Shown piece after piece: positions 4,447-53,341 of a DNA stretch of 64,000 nucleotides. Position numbers and translations under genes: made by a program. Source of the DNA: Clostridia bacterium (GTDB lineage Bacteria; Bacillota; Clostridia; Oscillospirales; UBA644); NCBI GenBank assembly GCA_017623595.1, contig JAGAOU010000039.1, positions 6,538-70,537 on the forward strand, written 5' to 3'. Every line of letters begins with the position of its first letter. Within the stretch, counting starts at the first letter, position 1. The notes under the pieces are model-generated. The model was not told the origin of the DNA, did no database searches, and was given only the letters and a program-made list of their open reading frames with translations.

Positions 4447-4455
4447 AGCGTTTTT

Positions 4456-10578: not shown

Positions 10579-10607
10579 TTGACATCCGAAGCGAAATGTG
10601 CTATACT
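10579..10607 (+). promoter_or_regulatory. SigA-type promoter of nrdG-nrdD-trxB
   Basis: -35 TTGACA (10579..10584), 17-bp spacer, extended -10 TGcTATACT (-10 at 10602..10607). It sits 9 bp downstream of NrdR box 2. Confidence 0.7.
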
Positions 10608-10640
10608 GTATGCGTACCGCCGAAAGAGAGGAGTGAGCCT

Positions 10641-11327
10641 GTGGACTTTTGCGGATTTCAAAAACTGACCCTGTTGGACTATCCGGGCCGTATGGCCGCA
10701 ACCCTGTTTACCGGTGGGTGCAATCTGCGCTGTCCCTTCTGCCATAACGGCGGGCTGGTCCTTTCCCCCGAGAGCCTTTATTCCGAGGATGAGGTGTTGA
10801 CCTTCCTTGCCTCCCGCAAAGGCCTTTTGGACGGCGTCTGTGTTACGGGTGGGGAGCCCCTGCTTCAGCCTGAGTTGGGAGAATTCCTTTCCAAGGTGAA
10901 GGATTTGGGGATGTCGGTCAAGCTTGACACCAACGGCACGCTCCCGAACCGTCTGAAGGAATTGGTTTCCCGCGGACTTGTGGACTACATCGCCATGGAT
11001 GTGAAAAACTGCCCCGAAAAATATGCCGAAACCACCGGCCTTCCCTCCGTCGATCTTTCCCGTATCAATGAAAGTATTTCCTTTACAATGGAAGGGAAGA
11101 CCGAATACGAGTTCCGTACCACCGTCGTGCGTGAGCTTCACACCGAGGATGATATTGCCAAGTTGGCCCAATGGATCGCAGGAGCGCAAAAGTACGCATT
11201 GCAGTCCTTCGTCGATTCCGGATCTCTTCTGTCCGACGGGCTGACGGCATGGGACAAAGAGACTATGTACCGCATGGCGGACATTGCCCGCAAATCTGTC
11301 CCCAATACCGAGGTGCGGGGCATCTGA
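10641..11327 (+). CDS. nrdG: anaerobic ribonucleoside-triphosphate reductase activating protein (radical SAM)
   Basis: CNLRCPFCHN radical-SAM cluster motif. The start is moved to GTG 10641 (RBS AGAGGAG 7 nt upstream), because the ORF-track ATG 10596 lies inside the promoter spacer. Confidence 0.9.
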   Translation: MDFCGFQKLTLLDYPGRMAATLFTGGCNLRCPFCHNGGLVLSPESLYSEDEVLTFLASRKGLLDGVCVTGGEPLLQPELGEFLSKVKDLGMSVKLDTNGTLPNRLKELVSRGLVDYIAMDVKNCPEKYAETTGLPSVDLSRINESISFTMEGKTEYEFRTTVVRELHTEDDIAKLAQWIAGAQKYALQSFVDSGSLLSDGLTAWDKETMYRMADIARKSVPNTEVRGI

Positions 11328-11371
11328 AATGTAAATAAAAAACAATCGATATATAAAAAAGGAGAAACACT

Positions 11372-13744
11372 ATGTACCATGTAGTAAAAAGAGGCGGCTC
11401 TGTTGTCAGCTTTGACGTTCGCAAGATCTGTGATGCGATCCAGAAGGCCTTTGACGCCACCGGCAAAAACTATCATCCTTCCACCATCGACTTTTTGGGT
11501 CTGAAGGTTACGGCCGATTTCGAGCCGAAGATCAAAGACGATGTGATCGCCGTAGAAGATATTCAGGACAGCGTGGAATCGGTTCTGATTCAGGCGGGCT
11601 ATTCCGATGTCGCCAAGGCCTACATTCTCTATCGCCGTCAGCGGGAAAAGCTCCGCGCTATCGGCGCTACCGCTCTGGACTATAAAGAAACGGTCAACGG
11701 CTATCTGGGCGGCTCCGACTGGCGCGTGAAGGAGAACTCCACCGTTACCTACTCTGTCGGTGGTCTGATCCTCAGCAACTCCGGTGCCATCACCGCGAAC
11801 TATTGGCTTTCCGAGATCTATGATGACGAGATCTCCAATGCACACCGTAACGGCGATATTCATCTTCATGACCTTTCCATGCTCACCGGTTACTGTGCCG
11901 GTTGGTCCCTCAAGCAGCTGATTCAGGAAGGTCTCGGCGGTGTTCCCGGTAAGATCACCTCTGCTCCCGCAAGCCACCTTTCCACCCTCTGCAATCAGAT
12001 GGTAAACTTCCTGGGTATCATGCAGAACGAATGGGCCGGCGCTCAGGCTTTCTCTTCTTTTGACACCTATCTTGCTCCCTTTGTCAAGATCGATAATCTG
12101 TCTCAGCGTGAAGTCAAGCAGTGCATCCAGTCCTTCATTTACGGTGTGAACACCCCCAGCCGCTGGGGTACTCAGGCACCCTTCTCCAACATTACTTTGG
12201 ACTGGGTCTGCCCCCCCGACCTGAAGGATCAGCCTGCCATCGTCGGCGGTAAGGAAATGGACTTCACCTACGGCGACTGCAAGAAGGAGATGGATATGGT
12301 CAACAAGGCCTTCATCGAAATCATGATCGAAGGCGATGCCAACGGCCGCGGATTCCAGTATCCCATCCCCACCTATTCCATCACCCGCGACTTCGACTGG
12401 AGCGAAACCGAAAACAACAAACTCCTCTTCGAAATGACCGCAAAATACGGGACTCCCTATTTCTCCAACTATATCAACTCCGACATGGAACCCAGCGACG
12501 TTCGCTCCATGTGTTGCCGTCTCCGTCTTGACCTGCGTGAACTGCGCAAGAAGTCCGGCGGCTTCTTCGGCAGCGGTGAATCCACCGGCTCCATCGGCGT
12601 TGTTACCATCAATCTGCCCCGCATTGCTTACCTTGCGGACAACGAAGCAGACTTCTACGCTCGTCTCGATCGGTTGATGGATGTTGCCGCCCGCAGTCTG
12701 AAGACCAAGCGTGAGGTTATCACCAAGCTGATGGAGAACGGACTGTATCCCTATACCAAGCGTTATCTGGGAACCTTCGCCAACCACTTCTCCACCATCG
12801 GTCTGATCGGTATGAACGAAGTCGGTTTGAACGCAAACTGGCTCCGTGCAGACCTCACCCATGACATTACCCAGCAGTTTGCTAAGGACGTGCTGAATCA
12901 TATGCGGGAACGTCTGTCCGACTATCAGGAAAAGTACGGCGACCTGTACAACCTGGAAGCTACTCCCGCCGAATCCACTACCTATCGCTTTGCCAAGCAC
13001 GATAAGAAGCACTATCCCAACATCATCACCGCCAATGAAAACGGTACTCCTTATTACACCAACTCTTCCCACCTGCCTGTGGGCTACACCGCAGACGTGT
13101 TCACCGCTTTGAGCATGCAGGATGAGCTTCACACCCTCTACACCTCCGGTACCGTGTTCCACGCTTATCTGGGTGAAAAGCTGCCCGACTGGAAGGCTGC
13201 CGCTTCTCTCGTTCGCAAGATCGCCGAGAACTTCAAGCTGCCCTACTATTCCATCAGCCCCACCTATTCCGTATGCCCCACCCACGGTTATATCACCGGC
13301 GAGCACTTCTCCTGCCCCGAATGCGGACATGAGACCGAGGTTTACAGCCGTATCACCGGTTACTACCGTCCCGTCAAGCACTGGAATGACGGTAAGAGCC
13401 AGGAATACAAGGACCGTAAGGTATACGATGTGGCAACCTCCGTGCTGAAAACCTCTGTGAAAGAGACTCCCTGCAGCTGTGAAGATGCTTGTCAGGTCGC
13501 TCCTCAGACCGCAGAAGCAAAGGTTCTGCTCTTCAGCCGTGTGACCTGCCCCAATTGCCGTGTGGCTGAAACCATGCTGGCAAAAGCAGGTGTGGCTTAT
13601 GAGAAACTGATTGCAGACGAACATCTGGATCTTTGCCAGAAGTATGGAATCAAGGGCGCTCCCACCCTGGTTGTGGATGACGGCACCCACTTTGCCACCT
13701 ATTACTCCGTGCAGGAAATCAAGAAGTTTATCGCTTCTCTGTAA
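11372..13744 (+). CDS. nrdD: anaerobic (class III) ribonucleoside-triphosphate reductase with an N-terminal ATP-cone and a C-terminal fused thioredoxin-fold domain
   Basis: RBS AAGGAGA. ATP-cone (MYHVVKRGGSVVSFDVRKICDAIQKAF...), Zn-ribbon CPTH...CPECG, glycyl-radical motif SRITGYYRPV, then a linker and a CPNC redoxin module. Confidence 0.95.
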   Translation: MYHVVKRGGSVVSFDVRKICDAIQKAFDATGKNYHPSTIDFLGLKVTADFEPKIKDDVIAVEDIQDSVESVLIQAGYSDVAKAYILYRRQREKLRAIGATALDYKETVNGYLGGSDWRVKENSTVTYSVGGLILSNSGAITANYWLSEIYDDEISNAHRNGDIHLHDLSMLTGYCAGWSLKQLIQEGLGGVPGKITSAPASHLSTLCNQMVNFLGIMQNEWAGAQAFSSFDTYLAPFVKIDNLSQREVKQCIQSFIYGVNTPSRWGTQAPFSNITLDWVCPPDLKDQPAIVGGKEMDFTYGDCKKEMDMVNKAFIEIMIEGDANGRGFQYPIPTYSITRDFDWSETENNKLLFEMTAKYGTPYFSNYINSDMEPSDVRSMCCRLRLDLRELRKKSGGFFGSGESTGSIGVVTINLPRIAYLADNEADFYARLDRLMDVAARSLKTKREVITKLMENGLYPYTKRYLGTFANHFSTIGLIGMNEVGLNANWLRADLTHDITQQFAKDVLNHMRERLSDYQEKYGDLYNLEATPAESTTYRFAKHDKKHYPNIITANENGTPYYTNSSHLPVGYTADVFTALSMQDELHTLYTSGTVFHAYLGEKLPDWKAAASLVRKIAENFKLPYYSISPTYSVCPTHGYITGEHFSCPECGHETEVYSRITGYYRPVKHWNDGKSQEYKDRKVYDVATSVLKTSVKETPCSCEDACQVAPQTAEAKVLLFSRVTCPNCRVAETMLAKAGVAYEKLIADEHLDLCQKYGIKGAPTLVVDDGTHFATYYSVQEIKKFIASL
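13523..13741 (+). other. C-terminal glutaredoxin/NrdH/thioredoxin-like domain of NrdD (73 aa)
   Basis: VLLFSRVTCPNCRVAETMLAKAGVAYEKLIADEHLDLCQKYGIKGAPTLVVDDG...: a beta-strand leads into a CPxC dithiol, and a GAPT cis-Pro loop precedes a beta-strand, which is the thioredoxin-fold pattern. Confidence 0.75.
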
Positions 13745-16016: not shown

Positions 16017-16997
16017 TCAATATTGTTCCAAGGCTTTTGTAAGATGCTCCTTGAATTGATCAATGACCTCTTTGGGGCGTTCGATGCGGATTTCTTCTCC
16101 GAAGGAGGCGACCCACCCGAAAAACTGGGGAGACACGTTGATGTCCGCATGGAAGGTGAAGGTTCCGTTTTTATCGGGGAGCATCATGACCTCTTTTCCA
16201 AATCGGTCGATGACCACATCTGCCAGTCGATTGGCACATCGGAAGGTGACATGGGTGATGTTCCCGCCGAACATGCCGAACACGCCGCTGGAGTACTCGG
16301 AAATATTCACTCCGGTGAATTCTTCCCGCCCTTCCCGCACCTCTTCCGTTTCCGAAACACCCCGCATGCGATCCACGCGGTAATGGCGCAGCTGGCCGTT
16401 TTCTCGGTTGTAGGCCACCAAGTAATAGTATTCATCGTCCCACAAAAGCATCCAGGGGGAGACCTTATACTTCTTTCCGTTGTGGCGGGCGGCCTGCTCC
16501 TTTGCAGGGGTCCATCCCCAATATTGGAAGGAGATCTGCCGATTGTGCAGAATGGCGTTGTGGATGGTATCAATGGTGTAAATGGTGGTGTTGTTCATGG
16601 ATTTAATGCGATTTTTTACCGTCACCTGGCGTTGTAGCTCGCGCGCCCGATGTTCACTGGTCAGCCCCTTCAGTTTTCGGATCAGTTCGTCGCTTTTGGT
16701 TACCGACACAAAGCGGCTGGACTGCACCGCATCCACCAGCATTTTCAGTTCGGGCAGATCGAATTCCCGTTGCACCAAACGGTATCCCTTTGCCTTGTCA
16801 TGTTCAATCACCATGCCAAAGCTGTCCTGCAGCAGGGCAATGTCATCGTAGATGCTCTTACGCTCCGCAGAGATGCCGTAGCGGTTCAGCTCCCGAATCA
16901 GTTCTTCCGTGTTTAATCCGTGATCCTCGTCGGTTTTTTCTTGCAAAATGCGGATAAGACAGGGCAATTTCAGTTTTTGGTTGGTCGAACGAGGCAT
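16017..16997 (-). CDS. WYL-domain transcriptional regulator (N-terminal wHTH, central WYL, C-terminal extension)
   Basis: 326 aa, RBS AAGGAGAGG. The N-terminus LPCLIRILQEKTDEDHGLNTEELIRELNRYGISAERKSIYDDIALL is a YafY/PafBC-like HTH. The central ...GQLRHYRVDRM... is the WYL-domain signature. Confidence 0.8.
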   Translation of the reverse strand: MPRSTNQKLKLPCLIRILQEKTDEDHGLNTEELIRELNRYGISAERKSIYDDIALLQDSFGMVIEHDKAKGYRLVQREFDLPELKMLVDAVQSSRFVSVTKSDELIRKLKGLTSEHRARELQRQVTVKNRIKSMNNTTIYTIDTIHNAILHNRQISFQYWGWTPAKEQAARHNGKKYKVSPWMLLWDDEYYYLVAYNRENGQLRHYRVDRMRGVSETEEVREGREEFTGVNISEYSSGVFGMFGGNITHVTFRCANRLADVVIDRFGKEVMMLPDKNGTFTFHADINVSPQFFGWVASFGEEIRIERPKEVIDQFKEHLTKALEQY

Positions 16998-22381: not shown

Positions 22382-22403
22382 GTAAAAAACGGAACATGCC
22401 GAA

Positions 22404-22610
22404 GATAGAGGTGCGGTCGCCACCGATTCCGGAATATGCCTGAGGCGGGTGCGGAATTGAGGACGGTCGCCGAGGTTGCGGTGAGGGCCTTTCAGCCGCA
22501 ATCGGGACGGCGCAGAAGATGCGTCGTACTGTCACAGAACCCTGTGGAGCGCTATCATGATTTGCAATTCCCCGTGTCATGAAGCATCTTCATGGCACGT
22601 TTTGTTTTTT
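22404..22610 (+). promoter_or_regulatory. Lysine riboswitch (L-box) with intrinsic terminator
   Basis: GAAGATAGAGGTGCG..., ...AATATGCCTGAGG..., ...GAGGACGGTCGCCGAGG... and ...CTGTCACAGAA... match conserved L-box blocks of B. subtilis lysC as I recall them. P1 is closed by GATAG (22404..) / CTATC (..22556). The terminator has a 12-bp stem (22573..22584 / 22588..22599) plus TTTTGTTTTTT. Confidence 0.88.
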
Positions 22611-22635
22611 CAGATTATTTTTCGGAGGGAAAACA

Positions 22636-24369
22636 ATGAAAAAGATGACCCGAATTTTCGGTATTCTGCTGCTTTGTCTTGCCTTGGTGGGAGCCATGTC
22701 CATGGTCTTCTCCGCCGAAGAGGCAACCGACGTTGCGGCGGCGTCCGAAGAGGCTGCGGAATACGCCAGCAGCTTTTACAACACCTTTCTCGCGCTCCTG
22801 CCCCCCATTATCGCCATCGGCCTTGCCCTGATCACCAAGGAAGTGTATTCTTCCTTGTTCATCGGTATTTTGTCGGGCGGTATTCTTTATGCCATCTCTG
22901 CCGACGGTTTCAGCTTTGAGACCATGTTCAACGCCGTTCTGAAGGACGGTCTTTTGAACAATCTGGCGGATGATTATAATATGGGCATTTTGATCTTCCT
23001 TGTGGTTCTCGGTATCATCGTTGTGATGATGAACCGTGCGGGCGGCTCCCGTTCCTACGGTGAGTGGGCATCCAAGCGGATTAAGTCCAACAAGGGGGCT
23101 CAGGCTTCCACCTTCGGGCTGGGTGTTCTGATCTTTGTGGATGACTATTTTAACTGCCTGACCGTGGGTAGCGTTATGCGTCCCTTGACCGACAAACAGC
23201 GGATCTCCCGTGCCAAGCTGGCCTATCTGATCGACGCCACCGCCGCTCCTGTCTGCATTATCGCTCCCATCTCTTCCTGGGCCGCCGCCGTCAGCGGTAC
23301 GGTCACGGGCTCCAGCGGTGTGGAGGTCAACGGTCTGGAACTGTTTATCCGCACCATTCCTTACAATCTCTACGCACTTCTGACTCTCGCCATGGTTCTT
23401 TTTGTGGCCTTCTCCGGCAAGGATTTCGGCCCCATGCGCAAGCATGAGCTTCGTGCACGGATCAATGGTGATCTGACCTCCGGTATTGATTCCGGCGAAA
23501 GCGAAGAGGAAGAAAAGTCCAACGCCAAGGGCAAGGTGATTGACCTTGTGCTTCCCGTTGTGATTCTGATCGTCTTCTGCGTTGTCGGTATGCTTTACAC
23601 CGGCGGGTTCTTCAGCGGAACGGGAATTATCGACGCCTTTGCAGGCTGCGATGCTTCTTACGGTTTGGCCCTCGGTTCACTCGGTGCGCTTCTGATCAAT
23701 GTGGTTTATTTCCTCTGCCGCCGTGTTCTTTCCTTTAAGGAAAGCATGGCCGCCATCCCCGAAGGCTTCAAGCAGATGGTTCCCGCCATTCTGATCCTTA
23801 CCTTCGCTTGGGGGCTGAAGGGAATGACCGGTCTTCTCGGTGCAGATGTTTACGTTGCAGAGCTGGTGAAGAGCGCCACCGCCCTCCAGATCCTCCTGCC
23901 CGCAATCCTCTTCATCGTTGCCGTATTCCTTGCCTTTGCCACCGGCACTTCCTGGGGTACCTTCGGTATCTTGATTCCCATCGTCACCGGTGTCTTCGAA
24001 GCGGATCTTGCCAACATCACCGAATCTGCCGGATCGCTGCCCACCTTGATGGTGATCTGCATTTCCGCCTGCCTTGCCGGTGCGGTCTGCGGTGACCACT
24101 GCTCGCCCATTTCCGACACCACCATTATGTCCTCCACGGGCGCCAAGTGTGATCACGTGACCCACGTTTCCACTCAGTTGCCCTATGCTATGACCGTGGC
24201 CTCCGTTTGCTTAGTCGGTTATCTGATTTCCGGATTCATTCAGAATGTCTGGGTTGTTCTCGGTGTCAGCATGGTACTGCTGTTTGCAATCCTCTTTGTT
24301 GTGACAAAAATCGCAAATCGCAACAATGCCGCAGAAGAAGCTGCTCTGCGGAAGGAACTCCAAGAATAA
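22636..24369 (+). CDS. NhaC-family (Na+/H+ antiporter superfamily) transporter, predicted lysine transporter of the LysW type
   Basis: 577 aa and polytopic. Start ATG 22636 follows RBS GGAGGG. The ORF-track start 22579 lies inside the riboswitch terminator. Control by an L-box implies a lysine-related substrate. Confidence 0.85.
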   Translation: MKKMTRIFGILLLCLALVGAMSMVFSAEEATDVAAASEEAAEYASSFYNTFLALLPPIIAIGLALITKEVYSSLFIGILSGGILYAISADGFSFETMFNAVLKDGLLNNLADDYNMGILIFLVVLGIIVVMMNRAGGSRSYGEWASKRIKSNKGAQASTFGLGVLIFVDDYFNCLTVGSVMRPLTDKQRISRAKLAYLIDATAAPVCIIAPISSWAAAVSGTVTGSSGVEVNGLELFIRTIPYNLYALLTLAMVLFVAFSGKDFGPMRKHELRARINGDLTSGIDSGESEEEEKSNAKGKVIDLVLPVVILIVFCVVGMLYTGGFFSGTGIIDAFAGCDASYGLALGSLGALLINVVYFLCRRVLSFKESMAAIPEGFKQMVPAILILTFAWGLKGMTGLLGADVYVAELVKSATALQILLPAILFIVAVFLAFATGTSWGTFGILIPIVTGVFEADLANITESAGSLPTLMVICISACLAGAVCGDHCSPISDTTIMSSTGAKCDHVTHVSTQLPYAMTVASVCLVGYLISGFIQNVWVVLGVSMVLLFAILFVVTKIANRNNAAEEAALRKELQE

Positions 24370-24480: not shown

Positions 24481-26166
24481 TTATAATTTCAGCTTTTCTG
24501 CAATAGCAAGCATCCGCTCGGGGGAGACCTTCAGCACCTTTCTGTCATAGGACAGAAGACCGTTGGTTTCGTCCTCCACGTCGGAGACCTGGGTATACAC
24601 CGCACCGCATAGCCCCTTCGGCAGCGCAGGAATGATTTCTGTTTCATACAACGCCACCAAGGCGTCCTCGAATTTTTCCCGATCCTCGAAAAAGCGGTAA
24701 CCGTAAGGCTTTCCCGGGTGGTAGATGTGTCCTTCGGGCTGATAGGAATATCCTCCGAATTCGGACAACACCACGGGCTTGTTACAAGAGGTGATTTTTA
24801 CGGGCTTTAAATAGACGTGCAGGCTTTCCACATCGCTCTTTTTCCCTTTGAACCACCCCGAGGTGGCATCAATGAAGCGGGAAGAATCCAATGCTTTCAA
24901 CTTTTCGTACATTGCGGCACTGTCAAACTGTCCCCAGCCTTCGTTGAAGATGGTCCAATAGCAGATGCATGGATGATTGTACAACTGTTGTACCGTGTCT
25001 CTCATTCCGTTTTCGAAATGAAGGCGGGCAGTCTTGTTCCGATGCAACCATTTGTCGGGGAATTTCTTCATTCCCACCGTGGGAAGGGCCGTATCCCGCA
25101 AGAAGGAATATTTTCCGTTGTTGACCATGTCCTGAAAGACGATCATTCCCAAGCGATCGCATTCGTAATAGAAATGCTCAGGCTCCACCTTGATGTGTTT
25201 TCGCAGCATATTGAAGCCCAATGCCTTCATTTCCACGATGTCTCTCGTGTAGTTTTCGGGGGATGCGGGGGTAAAAATACCATCGCTGTAATATCCCTGG
25301 TCCAAAAGACCGTGGAAGAAATAGGGCTTTCCGTTCAGACAAAGACGGGGAATCCCATCTACGGTTTTGGTTTCCAAGGTCCGCAGAGCAAAATATGATG
25401 AGATTTTATCTTCCCCCGATTCCACCGTAAAGTTGTACAAATAAGGATCTTCGGGCGACCACATCCGCGGATTTTGGATTTCAATTCGAACCTTGCCTTC
25501 GGCTAAATTCCTTTGAATTTCGCCCTCGGGGGTTTGAACGGTAACAGATCCGTCGGTGACACCTTCGGTTGTGATTTCCGCAAAATCCGCTCCCATATCA
25601 ATTTTCAGTGATTGGATATAAGCCTCCGGAACGCTTTCCAGCCATACCGTTTGCCAAATTCCCGTAATCGGCGTGTACCACATGCCGCCCCGCTTCTCTC
25701 GCTGCTTTCCGTAGGGGAGAAGGTGCTCGGGTTTCAGGTTGGAGCATTCCACGGTCAGTTCGTTTTCTTCCTGCAAATAGTCCGTGACATCAAAGCAGAA
25801 CGCATCGTAGCCACCCACATGCCATGCACAGCCCTGCCCGTTGAGTTCTATAAAAATCCGTTGATCTGCCGCACCGAAGTGCAAAAGCACCCGCCCCTTG
25901 AGGAAGCCCTCGGGGAGGGAGAAGGTTTTTCTGTATTTCACCGCAGGGGATTTTCCAAGTCTCCGTCCGATGCCCGACAGGGCCGATTCGGGAGGAAAGG
26001 GAACGGTGATTTTCTCCCAATCTCCGCCGTTGACGGAAAAATCCCATTCTCCATTCAAACAGAAAAAGGAATCCCGTTTCATCTGGGGTCGGGGGTAAAT
26101 ATTCCAGGGCTGTCCCGATAAGGATTCTCCTTCTTTGGTGTAAAGGGTTACAAATTCGTCTTTCAT
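24481..26166 (-). CDS. glycoside hydrolase family 2 (beta-galactosidase/beta-glucuronidase-like), cytoplasmic
   Basis: 561 aa. Seen: GGYDAFCFDVT (sugar-binding domain), YNHPCICYWTIFNEGWG (acid/base region), VLSEFGGY (nucleophile region). The RBS lies within the 3' end of the upstream MFS gene, with a 1-nt gap. Confidence 0.85.
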   Translation of the reverse strand: MKDEFVTLYTKEGESLSGQPWNIYPRPQMKRDSFFCLNGEWDFSVNGGDWEKITVPFPPESALSGIGRRLGKSPAVKYRKTFSLPEGFLKGRVLLHFGAADQRIFIELNGQGCAWHVGGYDAFCFDVTDYLQEENELTVECSNLKPEHLLPYGKQREKRGGMWYTPITGIWQTVWLESVPEAYIQSLKIDMGADFAEITTEGVTDGSVTVQTPEGEIQRNLAEGKVRIEIQNPRMWSPEDPYLYNFTVESGEDKISSYFALRTLETKTVDGIPRLCLNGKPYFFHGLLDQGYYSDGIFTPASPENYTRDIVEMKALGFNMLRKHIKVEPEHFYYECDRLGMIVFQDMVNNGKYSFLRDTALPTVGMKKFPDKWLHRNKTARLHFENGMRDTVQQLYNHPCICYWTIFNEGWGQFDSAAMYEKLKALDSSRFIDATSGWFKGKKSDVESLHVYLKPVKITSCNKPVVLSEFGGYSYQPEGHIYHPGKPYGYRFFEDREKFEDALVALYETEIIPALPKGLCGAVYTQVSDVEDETNGLLSYDRKVLKVSPERMLAIAEKLKL

Positions 26167-26167
26167 G

Positions 26168-27460
26168 TTATTTCTTCCTTCTCAAAACCCTGAATTGAAT
26201 CAGCAGATAGATTGCCAGAACCGTAGCGGCGGCTAAGGCGGCAAGGAAAATATTTTCGTTGGGGATAAAGGACTCAGTGCCGTCATTGTTGAGCACTTTG
26301 TCCGCATTTTTCAGTACCGCAGATCCGATTATTGGCCCGATCAGTCCGGGGATCAGCACTTGTGCTACGATGCGAAGCCCCTGGAACATTCCTGCCCGAT
26401 GCTCGGGGGTGTGATCTCTGATGACCGCCCCGAAGACCGCCATGCCCGACAGATAACCGCACATCATCAAAAGGGATCCCAAAAAGACGGGGATCACCGA
26501 TTGGAAGAAGATCAGAATCACATATCCTGCTCCCAGCATGGCCAGAGAAGGGCAGACCGATTTGCGGAATCCGATCTTATCGTAAACTCTTCCCCACAGT
26601 GCGGTGAACACCGAGGCCAAAATCACCGCGGGTGCCATGATCAGCACATAATTTTCCATGTGCAGGGATTCGGTATAGTACAGAATCAGATAGGGCATGA
26701 AGATCTGAATGGAGATTCCGAAGAGGGCAAAGCCCAACAAATGCAGGTAAAGGGTTTTGTTTTGTCCGATGACCTTGGGACGGAATCCGTAAAAAATGTT
26801 TTTGAAATAGCTTTTGTTTTCCTCTACCTTGACACAGGGATCTTGAATGAGGAAGAAGCCGAGAATGCCGATCAGCACCATTACGCCGCCGATGATCAGA
26901 AAAATGGTGGTCCAGCTTTCGGATTTGTCCAGATCAAAGCCCATGAATCCCCCGAATACCGCCAATATGGCCACCAGAGGCATCATGGCGTTGATCCCCT
27001 CCGCCTTGCCTCGGTTGGTGCTGTCGGTGGAGTCGGTCAGCCATGCGTTGAAGGCCGCATCGTTGGCCGAAGATCCAAAAAAGGTCATAATGCAGTCCAG
27101 AAGAATGGTCAGCGTCACCCCTACGGATGCCGCAGAGACCACAGAGGGAAAGAGTCCTTCAATTACATCTATCCGAACAAGGCAGAAAGCAAGAATGGAG
27201 ATTCCCCAAAGGATATATCCTCCGCAGATGAAAATTTTTCGCTTCCCGATCTTGTCCGACAGCGCTCCAATCAGCAGCGTCGTCACTGTTGCGGCGATGG
27301 CGGAGGCGGAAACCATCAGCGAGATCTCTGCGGCAGATGCGCCGAACATTTTGTAGATAAACACGTTGAAATACATGTTTTCCACTACCCATGCAATCTG
27401 ACCGGTAAGGCTGAAAATGGTCAGCGCAAGGAAAAAGGTTGCTTTTGTTCTTTTTTTCAT
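26168..27460 (-). CDS. MFS transporter, glycoside-pentoside-hexuronide (GPH)-like
   Basis: Trimmed to ATG 27460 (MKKRTKATFFLALTIF...; RBS AGGAAAGGA). 12 TM-like segments and a GALSDKIGKRK loop motif. The upstream part of the ORF-track frame is non-hydrophobic and Arg-rich. Confidence 0.85.
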   Translation of the reverse strand: MKKRTKATFFLALTIFSLTGQIAWVVENMYFNVFIYKMFGASAAEISLMVSASAIAATVTTLLIGALSDKIGKRKIFICGGYILWGISILAFCLVRIDVIEGLFPSVVSAASVGVTLTILLDCIMTFFGSSANDAAFNAWLTDSTDSTNRGKAEGINAMMPLVAILAVFGGFMGFDLDKSESWTTIFLIIGGVMVLIGILGFFLIQDPCVKVEENKSYFKNIFYGFRPKVIGQNKTLYLHLLGFALFGISIQIFMPYLILYYTESLHMENYVLIMAPAVILASVFTALWGRVYDKIGFRKSVCPSLAMLGAGYVILIFFQSVIPVFLGSLLMMCGYLSGMAVFGAVIRDHTPEHRAGMFQGLRIVAQVLIPGLIGPIIGSAVLKNADKVLNNDGTESFIPNENIFLAALAAATVLAIYLLIQFRVLRRKK

Positions 27461-27590
27461 AGCGTTTCCTTTCCTGCGGTGGGGTCCCACCGCATTAGCA
27501 AAAAGATGAAACAAAATGGTAAAGTCCAACGAGATTCCCAAGGAATAAGATATCGATTGTCTGCGGTCCGTACCTTGTACGGGCCGTTTT

Positions 27591-28346
27591 TTATCCCTGC
27601 TTTGCCTCGAACTCACTGGGAGACATGCCCTCCATGCGGCGAAACTCCGCTGAGAAATAACTGGAGCTTTCAAATCCTGCCCGAAAGGCAACCTCCGTTA
27701 CCGTATAAAGCCCCGTTTGCAACAGAAGCTTTGCGGTTTCGATGCGTTTCTTTTTGATATATTCCAGCGGTGTGGCCCCGTAGTATTTTTCAAACTCCCG
27801 TCGGAACCAGACCTCGCTTGTTTCGCACATGGCGGCAAGATCTCGAATCCGCAGCAGAGGGTCGGTGATGTTTTCGTCCATGTATTGCTTGCATCGTTTC
27901 ATGCGGGGCGGAATCGGCTGTTTGGGGCAAAAGATGCTGCTTGCCTCCGCCAGAATCTGATATGCCATGGACATCAGCACCAGGTCACACCCCTTTGCAG
28001 TGTATCGTCGGGCTGCCGTTTCGAACAGATTGTAGGTTGCTTTCGGAAACTCCACAGGGACGGTGGCGGGCAAACCTCCGCAGGATTCTTCGGCGAAAAA
28101 GTGCATCACAATCATTTCCCCCTCCTCTGAAGAATCGGTGCGGTAGGGGTACCCTGCGGGAACGTAGGTCAGAGAGTTCGGTCCCGAGGTAAGATCACAG
28201 TCTTCTCCTCGAATCCTTGTCGTTCCACTTGTGCGGAAGGAGAGAGAGGCAAAATTACGCCCGGGGACGGCGGTGGTGGGGCGCCGGCTGTAGGAGATCC
28301 GATAAATCATGCAGCTTTTCAGAACGGGTATTTCGGTGATTTTCAT
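27591..28346 (-). CDS. AraC-family transcriptional regulator (cupin sensor plus C-terminal HTH)
   Basis: 251 aa. The C-terminal ...LAAMCETSEVWFRREFEKYYGATPLEYIKKKRIETAKLLLQTGLYTVTEVAFRAGFESSSYFSAEFRR is the AraC double-HTH signature. Confidence 0.88.
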   Translation of the reverse strand: MKITEIPVLKSCMIYRISYSRRPTTAVPGRNFASLSFRTSGTTRIRGEDCDLTSGPNSLTYVPAGYPYRTDSSEEGEMIVMHFFAEESCGGLPATVPVEFPKATYNLFETAARRYTAKGCDLVLMSMAYQILAEASSIFCPKQPIPPRMKRCKQYMDENITDPLLRIRDLAAMCETSEVWFRREFEKYYGATPLEYIKKKRIETAKLLLQTGLYTVTEVAFRAGFESSSYFSAEFRRMEGMSPSEFEAKQG

Positions 28347-28451
28347 GATAATCGTTCCTTTCGGTATCCTATTGAGAATATTATACCATACTTTTACGGG
28401 AAATGCAACTGATTTTTGTTTCGAAATCCTAAATTTTATTGTCTTTTTTTG

Positions 28452-28480
28452 TTGACGGTCTCTTTCATCTGTGTTACAAT
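28452..28480 (+). promoter_or_regulatory. SigA-type promoter of the Fe-S gene pair
   Basis: -35 TTGACG (28452..28457), 17-bp spacer, extended -10 TGtTACAAT (-10 at 28475..28480). The GGGGATCCCC palindrome (28503..28512) lies in the leader. Confidence 0.6.
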
Positions 28481-28530
28481 AAACTTATCATACAGAAAAT
28501 GCGGGGATCCCCCGAAAAAGGAGTTATGTC

Positions 28531-29451
28531 ATGAATCAGCTGAAAGATCTTATTAACAGCGCAATGGAAAAAGAGGGAATCGATCTGATTGGTTTTGCCG
28601 GCAAGGATCGCTTCGCTTCCGTGGATGCGCAGCACAATCCCTTCTCCATCTTCCCCGAAGGAAAGACCGTTATCATGCTGGGCAAGCGTATCTGTCGCGG
28701 TGCTCTGCGCGGTGTGGAGGAAGGCACCAATTTCGGTGATTATCGCCTCTTCGGCTCCAATTGGCTGGAAGACGAGTTTCTTTCTCTCGCCTGCTATAAC
28801 CTTGTTCGGGTGCTGGAGAATGAAGGCTGGGAAGCCGTTCCTCTGTTCCCCAATCCTTCGGATGTTCCCCCTATGGGTGTTTCGGTTGCCGAAGGTCGCC
28901 CCGCACCTAACGTATTCCCCGACTTTACTTATGCCGCCGTTGCCTGCGGAATCGGCGAAATCGGCATGAACGGACTGCTTTTGACCCCCGAATACGGTTC
29001 CAGACAGCGGTTCCATATGATCATCACCGATGCGGAAATTGAGCCCACTCCTTTGCAGGAGGCTTCCGTTTGCCTGAAGTGCGGAAAGTGCGCCGCCGCT
29101 TGTCCTCTGGGGGCCGTTGATATTGAAAATGCTGAGGAAATTGACATTTGCGGCAAGAAAATGACCGTGGCGAAAATTAACTATGATCTCTGCCGTGATT
29201 GCAAGAACGGTGCCTGCGCCAATCGTCTTGCAAAAGCTTCCAAGCCCGACCGTATTCCCGCTCTCTGCAATCGTACCTGCCTGTGCTCTTTGGAAGAAGC
29301 GGGTGTGCTCGGAAATAAATTTGAGACCCCCTTCCGTAAGCGGGATGCCTGGGCTATCGGCGGAAAGGTCTCCGCAGAAGAAAGATCTTCTGAGAAAAAC
29401 AACGTCCTGGGCGGAGCCTACAGTGTTGACGGAAACAGAGGTGCCAAATAA
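28531..29451 (+). CDS. QueG/RdhA-superfamily-like iron-sulfur protein (paralogue A, 306 aa)
   Basis: RBS AAGGAG. GIDLIGFA, FPEGKTVIML, ACGIGEIGMNGLLLTPEYGSRQRFHMIITDAEIEP and CLKCGKCAAACP (CxxCxxCxxxCP) parallel the epoxyqueuosine-reductase core. A second Cys group is CRDCKNGAC...CNRTCLC. No signal or TAT peptide. Confidence 0.78.
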   Translation: MNQLKDLINSAMEKEGIDLIGFAGKDRFASVDAQHNPFSIFPEGKTVIMLGKRICRGALRGVEEGTNFGDYRLFGSNWLEDEFLSLACYNLVRVLENEGWEAVPLFPNPSDVPPMGVSVAEGRPAPNVFPDFTYAAVACGIGEIGMNGLLLTPEYGSRQRFHMIITDAEIEPTPLQEASVCLKCGKCAAACPLGAVDIENAEEIDICGKKMTVAKINYDLCRDCKNGACANRLAKASKPDRIPALCNRTCLCSLEEAGVLGNKFETPFRKRDAWAIGGKVSAEERSSEKNNVLGGAYSVDGNRGAK

Positions 29452-30597
29452 ATGAAATTGACATCTCAGATGATTAAGGACAGAGCCGCAGAATTGGGCA
29501 TCGATTGCATCGGTATCGGTAATATCGAGCGCTTCCAAAATGCGCCCAAGCTCATGTCCCCCCTGACCTATTTTCCCGAAGCAAAGTCGGTGATCGCCAT
29601 TGCCATGCGTATTCCGCGCGGTACCTATCGCGGTATCGAAGAGGGTACTCATTGGCACAACTACACCTTCTATTCCTACAATAAACTCAATTCCTATTTC
29701 CGTCCCCGTCTTTCTTATGAGCTTTGCCGCTTCATTGAGGATCACGGTTGGGAGGCTGTTGCCCATTATCCTGCAGTTCCCGAAGGAAACGGAACGGTCA
29801 AAGAGCCTGTTGCCGAGGGGAAGGTTCCTCCCGATGTGGTCTGCAGTGTTCGCCTGATTGCCGCAGGATGCGGTGTAGGTGAAGTTGGCTTTTCCAAGGT
29901 CTTTTTGACCAAGAAGTTCGGCCCCCGTGTCCGCCTTGGCCTGATCTTTACCGATTGTGAATTGGAGCCCGATCCGATCCTTGATACCGGTGATATTTGT
30001 CTGCATTGCGGCGCATGCCAGCGGGAATGCCCGGGGAACGCCGTTCCTTCCGTTAAGGATCCCGATGCCCGCCTGACGGTGGACTTTGGCGAAAAGAAGA
30101 TTTGGTACGGGGATGTGCAGATGGGACGCTGTACTCTCACCCATCACGGCATGAATAATGAGATTTCTCCCTTCCTGAAGAAGGAATTCCCCAATATGGC
30201 CTTCGATGTCCGCAACAGTCAGATGACCGAAGAGGAAGCCTATATCTTGGCTTATAATATGGGCCCCGCTACCTGGGGGCGTAAACCCGGACAGGCGGTT
30301 ATTGCTTACGAAAAGTACATTATGGATCATACGGGTTATATGGCTATCTGCGGTGCGCGAGGCTGTATCCGTGCTTGCATGAACGTGCTGGAAAAGGCAG
30401 GACGCATTGAGAATAAATTCCATAATCAGTTCTATAAGAAGGAATCCTGGTTGCTGCCCAACAAGCCCGTAACCGTGTCCCGCGGTGTCAACCCCTTCCG
30501 TGAGGAATATCTGGATGCCAAATATCCCGGTATCCGCGAAAATGAATACGTTATGCCGGAAAAAGTGGCGGAAAAGAGAAACAAAGAATGTAAATAA
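29452..30597 (+). CDS. QueG/RdhA-superfamily-like iron-sulfur protein (paralogue B, 381 aa)
   Basis: The ATG directly abuts the upstream TAA. It is collinear with paralogue A over about 200 aa (GIDCIGIG, FPEAKSVIAIAMRIPRGTYRGIEEGT, GWEAVAHYP, GCGVGEVGFSKVFLTKKFGPRVRLGLIFTDCELEP, CLHCGACQRECP). It has a distinct C-terminal half with CGARGCIRAC. Confidence 0.78.
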   Translation: MKLTSQMIKDRAAELGIDCIGIGNIERFQNAPKLMSPLTYFPEAKSVIAIAMRIPRGTYRGIEEGTHWHNYTFYSYNKLNSYFRPRLSYELCRFIEDHGWEAVAHYPAVPEGNGTVKEPVAEGKVPPDVVCSVRLIAAGCGVGEVGFSKVFLTKKFGPRVRLGLIFTDCELEPDPILDTGDICLHCGACQRECPGNAVPSVKDPDARLTVDFGEKKIWYGDVQMGRCTLTHHGMNNEISPFLKKEFPNMAFDVRNSQMTEEEAYILAYNMGPATWGRKPGQAVIAYEKYIMDHTGYMAICGARGCIRACMNVLEKAGRIENKFHNQFYKKESWLLPNKPVTVSRGVNPFREEYLDAKYPGIRENEYVMPEKVAEKRNKECK

Positions 30598-30617
30598 TGC
30601 GCGTGTCACCGCGTGCG

Positions 30618-30649
30618 AAAGGACATCTCCCTCGGGAGATGTCCTTTTT
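30618..30649 (+). terminator. Intrinsic terminator of the Fe-S gene pair (hairpin H1)
   Basis: 13-bp stem AAAGGACATCTCC (30618..30630) / GGAGATGTCCTTT (30635..30647), CTCG loop, T-run 30645..30649. Confidence 0.8.
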
Positions 30650-30690
30650 CTTGCGCTTCGCGCAAGCCGAGGGCGGCAGACCGCCCTCGG
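30650..30690. other. Two additional GC-rich hairpins (H2, H3) inside a closing helix
   Basis: H2 is CTTGCGC-TTC-GCGCAAG (30650..30666). H3 is CCGAGGGCGG-CAGA-CCGCCCTCGG (30667..30690). The closing helix is GCGTGCG (30611..30617) / CGCACGC (30692..30698). Confidence 0.5.
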
Positions 30691-30713
30691 ACGCACGCGC
30701 CTCACCGTTTGAT

Positions 30714-50995: not shown

Positions 50996-51004
50996 GGAAT
51001 CTTG

Positions 51005-53125
51005 TTACTGGTTGTTCTGCTGAGCGATCAAATCGCGGAGCGCTTCTTTACGGGAGAGGTTGATTCTGCCCTGATCGTCGATCTCGGTGACCTTGATCCA
51101 GATTTCGTCGCCCACGTTGACAACGTCTTCTACCTTGCCTACGCGACGTTCATCCAGCTGAGAAATGTGAACCAGACCTTCTTTGCCGGGAACGAATTCC
51201 GCAAAGGCGCCGAAGTTCATCAGGCGGGTAACCTTCGCCTTGTAGATGGTTCCGATTTCGGGACCTTCCACGATAGTGCGGATGATGCGCATGGCGTTTT
51301 CGCCGTTTTCTTTGTTGACGTAGAGAACCTGGCAGGATCCGTCATCTTCCACGTTGATTTTAACGTTGTTTTCAGCGGTGATGCGCTGAATAACCTTACC
51401 GCCGGTACCGATGACTTCGCGGATCTTGTCGGTGGGAATCTTATAGGACAGGATCTTGGGAGCGTATTCGGACAGTTCGGCTCTGGGAGCGGGAATGGCC
51501 TTGAGGATGATCTCGTTGATGATCTTTTCGCGGCCGGCCTTGGTCTGTTCGAAGGCCTTCTTGATGATCTCGTAGGAAAGACCGTCCACCTTAATATCCA
51601 TCTGAATGGAGGTGATGCCCTTCATGGTACCTGCTACCTTGAAGTCCATATCGCCGTAGAAGTCTTCCAAGCCCTGAATGTCCACCATGGTGATCCAGCG
51701 ATCTTCGTCGGTGACCAGACCGCAGGAGATACCTGCAACGGGAGCCTTAATGGGAACACCTGCATCCATCAGCGCCAGGGTGGAGCCGCAGACGGAGCCC
51801 TGAGAAGTGGAGCCGTTAGAGGAGAGAACCTCGGAGACCAGACGGATGGCATAGGGGAATTCCTCCACAGAGGGAAGAACGGGAACGAGAGAACGTTCTG
51901 CCAATGCTCCGTGCCCGATTTCACGACGGCCTGCACCGCGGTTGGACTTTGCTTCGCCGGTGGAATAGCCGGGCATATTGTAATGATGCATATAGCGCTT
52001 GGTTTCTTCGTTGTCCACACCGTCCAGAATCTGTGCTTCGGAGATGGAGCCCAGGGTGGCGATGGTCAGAACCTGCGTCTGACCGCGGCTGAACAGACCG
52101 GAACCGTGAACGCGGGGGAGAATGCCTGCTTCGGCGTAGAGAGGACGGATGTCTTCCAGTCCACGGCCGTCTACACGTTCGTGGTCATTGATGATCATAT
52201 CGCGGACGATCATCTTTTCGATCTTATAGACCGCTTCGCCGATGGCGGCGGAGGAGTCGGGATATTTCTCTGCAAATTCAGCTTCGATTTCGGCGGTCAC
52301 GGCGGCAACCTGAGCGTCACGGACGTCCTTGTCGTCGGTCTTCATGGCAACCTTGATCTTCTCGCCGGCGAAAGCGATGATGTCTTCCAACATGCCTTCG
52401 GGGAGGGTGTGGGCTTCGTATTCAAACTTGGGCTTGCCGATTTCGGCCTTGATGCCTTCGATGAATTCAACGATCTTCTTGATTTCCTTATGGGCTTCCA
52501 GAATACCGTTGTACATCACGTCATCGGGAATTTCGTTGGCGCCTGCTTCGATCATAACGATCTTGTCGGCAGAAGCGGCAACGGTGACCGCCATTTCGGA
52601 AACAGCGCGCTGTTCCTCGGTGGGGTTGATGACATATTCGCCGTCAACATAACCCAGAAGAACGCCACCGATGGGGCCCTTCCAAGGAATGTCGGAAATG
52701 GAGATTGCAACGGAGGCACCGATCATAGCGGTGATATCGGGAGAGCAATCCTGATCCACTGCCATCAGCGTCAGGCTGACCACAACGTCATTTCTCATAT
52801 CCTTGGGGAAGAGAGGACGGATGGGACGGTCGATGACACGGGCGGTGAGGATAGCCTTTTCGCTGGGCTTACCTTCACGCTTCATGAAGGAGCCGGGAAT
52901 GCGACCGACGGAATAGAGCTTTTCTTCATAATCCACAGCGAGGGGGAAGAAGTCGATTCCGTCACGGGGCTTTTCGGATGCGGTGGCGCAGGCCAGCACG
53001 CAGGTTTCGCCGTAGCGGATCATAGCGGAGCCGTTGGCAAGACCGGCAAACTTACCGGTTTCCACGACCAGAGGACGACCTGCGACGGTGGTTTCGAACT
53101 TGCGATAGTTTTCGTAGATGTTCAT
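51005..53125 (-). CDS. pnp: polyribonucleotide nucleotidyltransferase (PNPase)
   Basis: Two RNase PH domains, a KH domain and a C-terminal S1 domain (GTIYKAKVTRLMNFGAFAEF). Start ATG 53125 (MNIYENYRKFET...) follows RBS AAAGGAAAAG. Confidence 0.95.
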   Translation of the reverse strand: MNIYENYRKFETTVAGRPLVVETGKFAGLANGSAMIRYGETCVLACATASEKPRDGIDFFPLAVDYEEKLYSVGRIPGSFMKREGKPSEKAILTARVIDRPIRPLFPKDMRNDVVVSLTLMAVDQDCSPDITAMIGASVAISISDIPWKGPIGGVLLGYVDGEYVINPTEEQRAVSEMAVTVAASADKIVMIEAGANEIPDDVMYNGILEAHKEIKKIVEFIEGIKAEIGKPKFEYEAHTLPEGMLEDIIAFAGEKIKVAMKTDDKDVRDAQVAAVTAEIEAEFAEKYPDSSAAIGEAVYKIEKMIVRDMIINDHERVDGRGLEDIRPLYAEAGILPRVHGSGLFSRGQTQVLTIATLGSISEAQILDGVDNEETKRYMHHYNMPGYSTGEAKSNRGAGRREIGHGALAERSLVPVLPSVEEFPYAIRLVSEVLSSNGSTSQGSVCGSTLALMDAGVPIKAPVAGISCGLVTDEDRWITMVDIQGLEDFYGDMDFKVAGTMKGITSIQMDIKVDGLSYEIIKKAFEQTKAGREKIINEIILKAIPAPRAELSEYAPKILSYKIPTDKIREVIGTGGKVIQRITAENNVKINVEDDGSCQVLYVNKENGENAMRIIRTIVEGPEIGTIYKAKVTRLMNFGAFAEFVPGKEGLVHISQLDERRVGKVEDVVNVGDEIWIKVTEIDDQGRINLSRKEALRDLIAQQNNQ

Positions 53126-53341
53126 GTCTTTTCCTTTCTGTTCCGATGCCCCCATCTGTTCCGGCAGTTATCAAAAAGTCCGTCAAACGGGCTCTTTCAT
53201 AACTGCTGAATCCAGAAAACGCGGGGGTCGGATTTTTTTGTTGATAATTTGGATCAGTGGGCTTCTTTTTTTGGGGATGACGGCAAAAAACAAAGCCATC
53301 TGCCGGAGGCAAACCAACGGACAAATGACTTTGCGTTGCCC

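Follow-up and report, generated by a model that had tools for sequence, protein, structure and literature searches.

To our knowledge, only two reductive chemistries have been established for the RdhA/QueG superfamily, namely reductive dehalogenation and the reduction of a tRNA epoxide. Two abutting genes in a Clostridia bacterium raise the question of whether members of this superfamily have been put to another use. The genes lie in a stretch of 64,000 nucleotides of contig JAGAOU010000039.1 (assembly GCA_017623595.1), which is called the window here. Gene A (28531..29451, + strand) has an ATG start and encodes 306 amino acids (aa), and gene B (29452..30597, + strand) has an ATG start and encodes 381 aa; the TAA of A (29449-29451) is followed at once by the ATG of B (29452-29454). 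An original prediction, made by reading the sequence, had proposed that the two genes encode divergent QueG/RdhA-like paralogues that may form a heteromeric reductase. The abutting genes, their lengths and the peptide strings that it quoted were all present in the sequence. We consider it very probable that A and B are a co-functioning pair of paralogues in this superfamily and that the pair is neither QueG nor a classical RdhA. Our preferred reading, to which we assign a probability of about 55%, is that A and B are the subunits of one inducible, cytoplasmic, heteromeric class-III cobalamin/[4Fe-4S] reductase that acts on a small, probably glycan-derived metabolite.

Two paralogues with the RdhA/QueG fold

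In BLASTP, A and B were 35% identical across 233 aa (E=3e-44), and there was a second collinear block of 34 aa in the C-terminal part (E=2e-6); this is far more similarity than chance would give. The two proteins are thus paralogues, as had been suggested from their collinearity. Both matched the curated hidden Markov models (HMMs) of NCBIfam for the two known enzymes of the superfamily, at scores far below the curated cut-offs. The RdhA model TIGR02486 gave 44.6 bits with A and 42.4 bits with B against a cut-off of 160.35 bits, and the QueG model TIGR00276 gave 26.8 bits with A and 34.9 bits with B against a cut-off of 200 bits, with about 60-75 core residues matched. Sequence searches of the PDB found PceA (8q4h; E=1.7e-9 for A and 7e-10 for B), QueG (5d6s; E=5.5e-7 for A and 9e-5 for B) and also NpRdhA, with all of these matches confined to a core of 60-90 residues. 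The block G(I/V)GE(I/V)G...CxxCxxCxxxCP, which the original prediction had recognised as belonging to RdhA and QueG, was correctly assigned according to these profile and PDB matches. The search of A and B against Pfam returned only sub-threshold Fer4 matches, with no HEAT, QueG_DUF1730 or family-covering domain of unknown function.

AlphaFold2 models of the proteins had a mean confidence (pLDDT) of 86.3 for B and 79.0 for A, and the C-terminal tail of A (residues 272-306) was disordered. In both models, a domain with the nitroreductase-like fold of cobalamin-binding enzymes is followed by a bacterial-ferredoxin domain. Foldseek matched both models to QueG, NpRdhA and PceA at E values of about 1e-8 and a probability of 1.0, and the top match of B was QueG. 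The matches with E<=1e-3 were to these three enzymes and, for A, additionally to CblC/CblD (5e-4 to 1e-3 for A; 0.02-0.05 for B). Alignment with hhalign to a profile of three QueG sequences gave a probability of 97.9% over residues 3-214. Since the alignment to the QueG profile ends at about residue 212-214 of B, the helical tRNA-binding domain of QueG is unmatched, and this agrees with the earlier statement that the C-terminal HEAT repeats of QueG are missing.

No twin-arginine translocation (Tat; RR) motif or hydrophobic leader was visible on direct reading of the N-terminus of either protein, and both are predicted from sequence to be cytoplasmic, as originally proposed. There was no rdhB membrane-anchor gene beside A-B; the genes that flank the pair are an AraC-family gene and ispG, on the other strand. 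A classical respiratory RdhA was rejected on these grounds, with scores under the TIGR02486 cut-off, no Tat signal and no RdhB. The public names of A/B homologues are 'hypothetical', '4Fe-4S binding', 'ferredoxin' or, mistakenly, 'QueG'. No paper on the family was found in the full-text literature on QueG-like and RdhA-like proteins, on class-III B12 in the gut, or on epoxyqueuosine reductase together with glycans or hexosaminidase.

Conservation was computed over 142 A-type and 142 B-type sequences. Eight cysteines are conserved in each family: C181, C184, C187, C191, C221, C224, C246 and C250 in A, and C183, C186, C189, C193, C227, C300, C305 and C309 in B. Their conservation is 0.99-1.00, save for C300 of B at 0.94. 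Both subunits fit the pattern Cx2Cx2Cx3C...C...C...Cx3C for two [4Fe-4S] clusters, which is the pattern described for QueG (PMC5175355). The ligands of A are encoded at 29071..29280 (+) and consist of a CxxCxxCxxxCP motif, C221-x2-C224 and C246-x3-C250. In B, the first cluster motif, C183-x2-C186-x2-C189-x3-C193-P, lies at 29998..30030 (+) and the distal cysteines, C300-x4-C305-x3-C309, lie at 30349..30378 (+). The sixth ligand has moved, with C224 of A straight after the fifth ligand and C300 of B just ahead of the seventh. The second cysteine region noted earlier in each protein is therefore real, but it is conserved only in part, as C229 and C252 are not conserved among the A-type sequences. 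Between C227 and C300, B carries a specific insert of about 72 aa (30133..30351, +), in which H231, H232, S239, P240, F241, E260, E261, Y264 and W275 are invariant. The position of this insert matches the site of the ferredoxin-domain insert (Fd-insert) of QueG, which contributes the substrate-contacting Gln220 (PMC5175355).

Several residues around the expected corrin site are also kept, and more of them in B than in A. The core motif common to RdhA and QueG spans A136-D167 of A (AxxxGIGEIG...GSRQR...ITD; 28936..29031, +) and A137-D168 of B (AxxxGVGEVGFSKVFLTKKFGPRVR...FTD; 29860..29955, +). R161 within the B motif falls on PceA R305 in the phmmer alignment, and R160 is its equivalent within the A motif. 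Y71, which is kept in A and B, aligns in hhalign to Tyr105 of QueG, the tyrosine above the corrin and the counterpart of PceA Tyr246 (PMC4646009). This tyrosine and R160/R161, which form the RdhA-type dyad, are each at least 95% conserved in both families. Just upstream of the B core motif, R134 is invariant in the B-type sequences and aligns in hhalign to Arg141 of QueG, which sits under the corrin (PMC5175355; PMC4646009). At this position, A has Thr in the window and Asp in most relatives. N70-Y71-T72 of B map onto D104-Y105-H106 of QueG, which reduces the D-Y-H motif to Tyr, and Asp134 of QueG aligns to Pro110 of B, where the next residue, Glu111, is invariant.

R27, R56-G57, R60-G61, E64-G65-T66, Y71, E96, E101, G141, G157, R159, R161, T167-D168 and W333 are conserved in both subunits. 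Outside the insert, the positions invariant only in B are W68, N70, T72, Y76, N80, E111, R134, G143-E144-x-G146 and S148-K149, and H231-H232 belong to the same class. The GxGExG motif, invariant in B, is relaxed in A (conservation 0.64, 0.82 and 0.74). The invariant positions specific to B outnumber those specific to A about threefold, and B was the more conserved subunit in 127 of 146 loci. This asymmetry suggests that B is probably the main catalytic subunit, while A is possibly a partner that keeps both clusters and may or may not bind a corrinoid.

These features set the pair apart from each of the known enzymes. RdhA/PceA (TIGR02486; PDB 4UQU, 8Q4H) shares with A and B the cobalamin-domain and ferredoxin-domain fold, the core AGLGExG...FGPR.R...TD...CxxCxxCxxxCP and the Tyr-Arg dyad (Y246/R305 in PceA; Y71/R161 here). 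Unlike A and B, respiratory RdhA has a Tat leader and an RdhB anchor, and it does not have the 72-aa insert that B carries in its ferredoxin domain. QueG (TIGR00276; PDB 5D08 from B. subtilis and 5D6S from S. thermophilus) shares the N-terminal layout of a helix and a GxDxxG strand, the RGI...W..Y segment, the eight-cysteine pattern with an insert between the fifth and sixth cysteines, the cytoplasmic location without Tat and, with B, the Arg under the corrin. In contrast to A and B, QueG is monomeric and has the full D-Y-H motif, the catalytic Asp134 and, at its C-terminus, a HEAT-like domain that binds tRNA, none of which are found here. In place of the GxGE of A and B, QueG has GIGF or GLGW. 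The Arg that corresponds to PceA Arg305 is missing from QueG, so that A and B resemble RdhA more than QueG in this respect. The chaperones CblC/MMACHC and CblD (PDB 3SOM, 5UJC, 6X8Z), which are the next matches after QueG and RdhA, have a nitroreductase-like cobalamin-binding fold but no ferredoxin domain or Fe-S clusters, and Foldseek matched them far less strongly (E 5e-4 to 5e-2). The A/B family thus belongs to a known superfamily and probably uses the same cofactors, but it probably differs in subunit architecture, active-site surroundings, regulation and biological setting.

The two genes are kept as an ordered pair

A total of 160 loci were analysed, and 138 of them had enough 5' DNA for the order of A and B to be called. 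In 136 of the 138 loci, B is immediately preceded on its own strand by an A-type gene. The exceptions were one locus with the order B-A-A and one locus (L152) with B but without A. The two genes are thus co-conserved as a pair, as the original prediction had implied, with the order reversed only once. The spacing between A and B has a median of 4.5 nt, and the genes overlap or lie within 30 nt of each other in 110 of the 136 pairs.

The pair is widespread. Relatives were found in at least 594 genomes when one genome per species was scanned, and hundreds more came from metagenomes that were scanned with a distant profile. Carriers of A-B belong to the Clostridia (Oscillospiraceae, Acutalibacteraceae, Christensenellaceae), Lentisphaeria/Victivallales (Lentisphaerota), Kiritimatiellae/Kiritimatiellia, Planctomycetaceae (Planctomycetota) and Armatimonadota, and Oligosphaera ethanolica DSM 24202, with its locus at about 1.094-1.097 Mb of NZ_JAUSVL010000001.1, is a cultured carrier. 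The genomes nearest to that of the window are uncultured Clostridia from the hindguts of cattle, deer, buffalo, sheep and goat, and this DNA occurs in sequencing runs of gut metagenomes, goat and bovine among them. Across the family, the carriers are fermentative glycan degraders from animal hindguts, digesters and sediments.

Related modules also occur in other arrangements. Several loci contain three tandem paralogues (A', A and B). When 1.84 billion representative proteins were searched exhaustively, 1,837 of them matched with E<=1e-3, which corresponds to about 1,800 clusters at 50% identity. Many of the matches are about 730-850 aa long and consist of three modules, of which the first and third are full and the middle one is degenerate and lacks Fe-S motifs; one relative of 470 aa is a two-module fusion. 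The three-module form was found in the same operons as A-B at 13 loci (L042, L068, L078, L112-L114, L117, L120-L122, L130, L145 and L166), and its genes are often flanked by IclR genes. Among the three-module proteins, P0275, P0277, P0287 and P0361 carry the JGI name 'epoxyqueuosine reductase QueG'. With about 30% identity to each subunit, the three-module fusions are no closer to A than to B, and therefore do not show which of the two is ancestral.

The conserved adjacency and order, the fused relatives and the dimeric or pseudo-dimeric nature of RdhA enzymes support a single enzyme made of A and B. PceA forms an A2B2 complex in which PceA itself is homodimeric, and in NpRdhA a second, vestigial cobalamin domain produces a pseudo-dimer (PMC12219181). 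The NpRdhA/BhbA type (PDB 4RAS, 6ZXX) is the closest architectural precedent for the A/B pair and for the three-module fusions, as it is cytoplasmic and soluble and combines the core with a second copy of the cobalamin fold that replaces the dimer partner. NpRdhA carries the two copies on a single polypeptide of about 700 aa and binds no cofactors in the second one, and an NAD(P)H-reductase module may be fused to it, whereas the partner in A/B is a separate protein that retains both Fe-S clusters and the Tyr/Arg dyad. PceA differs in that it works as a homodimer and not with two different paralogous subunits.

Another possible, though unlikely, explanation is that A and B are two separate homodimeric enzymes for related substrates or successive steps and are merely co-transcribed. 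Homodimers could account for the retention of all eight cysteines, Y71 and R160/R161 in both proteins, for the tandem A', A, B loci, for the B-A-A locus and the locus with B alone, and PceA provides an example of a homodimer inside an A2B2 complex (PMC12219181). They would account less well for an A-then-B order with near-zero spacing in 136 of 138 loci and five lineages. The conservation is also asymmetric, since A has a relaxed GxGExG motif, no equivalent of Arg134 and one relocated ligand. In addition, such modules work side by side in one polypeptide in the fused relatives with several modules, in some of which the middle module is degenerate.

Regulators, neighbouring genes and the locus

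Neighbouring genes were analysed using all open reading frames (ORFs) together with homology clustering. A regulator was the only near-constant neighbour of A-B. A divergent AraC gene was found at 51 loci, nearly all from Clostridia, and an IclR gene was found at 38 loci, mostly from Planctomycetes-Verrucomicrobia-Chlamydiae (PVC) and Armatimonadota groups. In five Armatimonadia loci (L065, L066, L070, L095 and L096; for example, 5078-5985 in L066), two genes are inserted between A and B, which encode a ferredoxin:thioredoxin-reductase catalytic beta chain (PF02943) and a thioredoxin-fold protein of the AhpC/TSA type. These inserts hint at a ferredoxin or thiol link with the A/B enzyme. In two other loci, a uroporphyrinogen decarboxylase (URO-D)-type gene lies 3' of B (7302-8339 in L067), and in one of them it is followed by a homocysteine S-methyltransferase-type gene (L072, 7079-9185). 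The URO-D family includes methylcobamide methyltransferases, and these neighbours are a possible corrinoid link.

This link bears on whether A and B hold a corrinoid at all. It is conceivable, if rather improbable, that the scaffold and the Fe-S clusters have been kept without one, with flavin or an empty pocket in its place, and that the pair is an Fe-S/flavin reductase or an electron-transfer module for a neighbouring enzyme. The fold is of the nitroreductase-like kind that binds flavin, the structural matches also include CblC and CblD, and the window has no B12 gene or riboswitch near the pair. Moreover, the cobalamin-binding residues are poorly conserved across the superfamily, so the sequence cannot settle corrinoid binding. 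However, the strongest conservation in A/B falls exactly in the segments that they have in common with the cobalamin enzymes (RGI...W..Y71, R134, GxGExG, R159/R161 and TD), with the Tyr over and the Arg under the corrin invariant in B. The genes that follow the pair in L072 and L067 likewise argue for a corrinoid, since the URO-D family (both loci) and the homocysteine S-methyltransferase family (L072) include corrinoid-linked methyltransferases.

A Pfam census covered same-strand genes within 2.6 kb of the pair, in two lineage sets of 118 and 117. Glycoside hydrolase (GH) family GH20 was the commonest neighbour family in both sets (5/118 and 8/117). Next came Gfo/Idh/MocA oxidoreductases, ABC sugar-transport genes, GH89 (NAGLU)-like genes and SGSH C-domain sulfatases, and GH123-like genes also recur. 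Examples of operons are GH20-A-B, A-B-GH20, NAGLU-A-B and GH123-MFS-3module-GH20-A-B-GH20, in which MFS stands for a major facilitator superfamily transporter. Both the hosts and the neighbours of A-B point to sugar catabolism and not, as in RdhA, to organohalide respiration. Breakdown of N-acetylhexosamine-bearing glycans is the most likely source of the substrate.

The same census helps to make it distinctly improbable that the pair is a genuine cytoplasmic catabolic reductive dehalogenase for natural organohalides, since the neighbours are hexosaminidase-like, sugar oxidoreductase and sugar transporter genes and not genes for aromatic or halogenated compounds. RdhA/PceA did provide the best HMM and PDB sequence matches, and the RdhA-type GLGE motif and Tyr-Arg dyad are retained. 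The HMM scores were nevertheless 42-45 bits against the 160-bit family cut-off, no Tat signal, RdhB gene or NAD(P)H-reductase module accompanies the pair, and the hosts live by fermenting glycans in animal hindguts, digesters and sediments. Lastly, that one of the genes is the organism's epoxyqueuosine reductase QueG, as the JGI names of several homologues and the top Foldseek match of B might suggest, is scarcely credible, and QueG orthology was rejected in line with the original prediction, given scores of 27-35 bits against a 200-bit cut-off, the loss of all but Tyr from D-Y-H and of Asp134 (Pro in B), the unmatched tRNA-binding domain, and an AraC/IclR regulator, a fixed paralogue partner and glycoside-hydrolase neighbours that would be unexpected for a tRNA-modification gene.

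In the window, the divergent AraC-family gene (27591..28346, -; 251 aa; Pfam HTH_18 5e-21, HTH_AraC 1e-16 and AraC_binding_2) is likely the sensor and activator of the A-B operon. A sigma-70-like promoter with an extended TG (TTGACG-17 nt-TACAAT; 28452..28480, +) is proposed from a consensus match at 10 of 12 positions. Upstream of its -35 hexamer, the direct repeat TTTCG(G/A)(T/A)ATCCTA occurs on the + strand as TTTCGGTATCCTA (28359-28371) and TTTCGAAATCCTA (28419-28431), 60 nt apart and with 85% identity. The repeat pair (28359..28431) may be a regulator site and could be an AraC operator or a chance match. Reading of the + strand gave a Shine-Dalgarno sequence AAGGAG 7 nt ahead of the start codon of A and another, GAGGTG, for B within the 3' end of A. 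An intrinsic terminator with a 14-bp hairpin and a U-run (30617..30655, +) starts 20 nt past the stop codon of B, and the 68-nt terminator stretch has a fold energy of -41 kcal/mol (z = -7.3). The promoter, the two Shine-Dalgarno sequences, the terminator and the divergent AraC gene together indicate that A-B is a bicistronic, translationally coupled operon.

A and B share one reading frame with a single TAA between them, and read-through would produce a fusion of 688 aa. Programmed read-through of this TAA was rejected because relatives show differing frames, 1-nt overlaps or gaps, and the shared frame therefore looks incidental. On the opposite strand, an ORF of 743 aa (28474-30705, -) covers both genes. 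Long antisense 'shadow' ORFs lie opposite real genes throughout the window (2533-4815 against 2512-4446; 51002-53209 against 51005-53155), and a gene caller that takes the longest ORF would thus choose the wrong strand.

Beyond the AraC gene lies an MFS transporter gene (26168-27691, -) that abuts a GH2 gene (24481-26166, -). As listed, the MFS ORF has 507 aa and a TTG start and runs into the AraC gene, and translation therefore probably begins at the internal Met of MKKRTK... The GH2 protein is closest to beta-D-galactofuranosidase (PDB 9j6n, E=6e-101) and not to beta-glucuronidase. GH2 recurs beside A-B in only one other locus (L005), where the MFS and GH2 parts were called as a single product of 980 aa that overruns the end of the locus. 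A part for MFS-GH2 in the A-B system was rejected on account of this single recurrence and the galactofuranosidase-like match, and the two genes are probably a separate unit. Metatranscriptome contigs cover B, AraC, MFS and GH2, giving a weak indication that these genes are expressed.

The genes 3' of A-B, on the other strand, are ispG, rseP, dxr, cdsA, uppS and frr, and nrdDG, ileS, pepF, pyrH, ackA, der and plsY lie farther away in the window. These surroundings indicate that the A-B cassette sits in an ordinary chromosomal region. The anaerobic ribonucleotide reductase pair (10596-13744, +), in which an nrdG-like radical SAM activase gene is followed by nrdD, is consistent with a strict anaerobe. 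A regulator with WYL/WCX domains (16017-16997, -) also lies upstream of A-B. A lysine riboswitch (Rfam RF00168, 74 bits; 22398-22562, +) was found directly 5' of an NhaC-type Na+/H+ antiporter-family gene (22579-24369; PF03553), which suggests that this gene encodes a lysine-controlled transporter.

A proposed reductase and what it would mean

In the mechanism that we propose for the A/B reductase, both subunits would be made from the coupled operon when the substrate induces it through the divergent AraC-type regulator. A low-potential donor, either ferredoxin or flavodoxin, would feed electrons into the [4Fe-4S] clusters, of which there would be two in each subunit, and the four clusters would pass them on to a base-off corrinoid in B and perhaps in A too. 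Co(I) would then attack a carbon of the small metabolite that bears an oxygen-, sulfur- or halogen-type leaving group, with protons supplied by the Tyr71/Arg161 pair and Glu111 of B. B would be the main catalyst, with Arg134 under the corrin, the invariant GxGExG motif and the 72-aa insert with its invariant His, Glu, Tyr and Trp residues. A would complete the dimeric core and contribute two more clusters.

Several considerations weigh against this reading. The A-B complex is a proposal drawn from the fixed adjacency, the translational coupling, the fusions among relatives and the way in which RdhA enzymes form dimers or pseudo-dimers, and cobalamin binding by A and B is predicted from homology. 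Both subunits keep Tyr71, Arg160/161 and all eight cysteines, and A may therefore be fully active. A nitroreductase-like fold could hold flavin, and there was no cobalamin riboswitch (Rfam) or B12 gene in the window. The link to glycans is a statistical one: bacteria that degrade glycans are rich in GH and sulfatase genes in any case, the GH20-like and GH89-like neighbours are distant from characterised enzymes, and the AraC-A-B cassette stands alone in most Clostridia loci, including the window. The RNA contigs are short, were assembled from one run and may include DNA, and they are too weak a basis for mapping the operon or identifying the condition that induces it.

The pair is kept across five lineages, often beside enzymes that release N-acetyl amino sugars, and thus likely represents a third job for the class of enzymes that includes the dehalogenases and queuosine reductase. 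A large family is also defined that lies outside both curated models (TIGR02486 and TIGR00276). CblC/MMACHC, which has the same fold, processes B12 itself. The two-subunit form, the substrate-type regulators and the hexosaminidase-rich neighbourhoods lead to a testable hypothesis, namely that a B12/Fe-S reductase takes part in the sugar catabolism of anaerobes that degrade glycans, and experiments are feasible with Oligosphaera ethanolica DSM 24202, a carrier that is in culture. If this is true, a new B12-dependent reaction would be added, there would be a further reason for the demand for cobamides in gut communities, and a recurrent mis-annotation as QueG would be corrected.

A more specific and quite tentative proposal, which we regard as possible but on the unlikely side, is that the pair founds a third functional branch among class-III B12 enzymes, as a cytoplasmic heterodimeric reductase that is driven by ferredoxin. 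Its cob(I)alamin would act on an N-acetylhexosamine-derived metabolite released by GH20-, GH89- or GH123-type enzymes and displace from it a leaving group linked through oxygen, such as a sulfate ester, an ether or an activated hydroxyl. If so, gut Clostridia and the PVC and Armatimonadota carriers would gain a reductive step in the breakdown of amino-sugar glycans that has no described equivalent.

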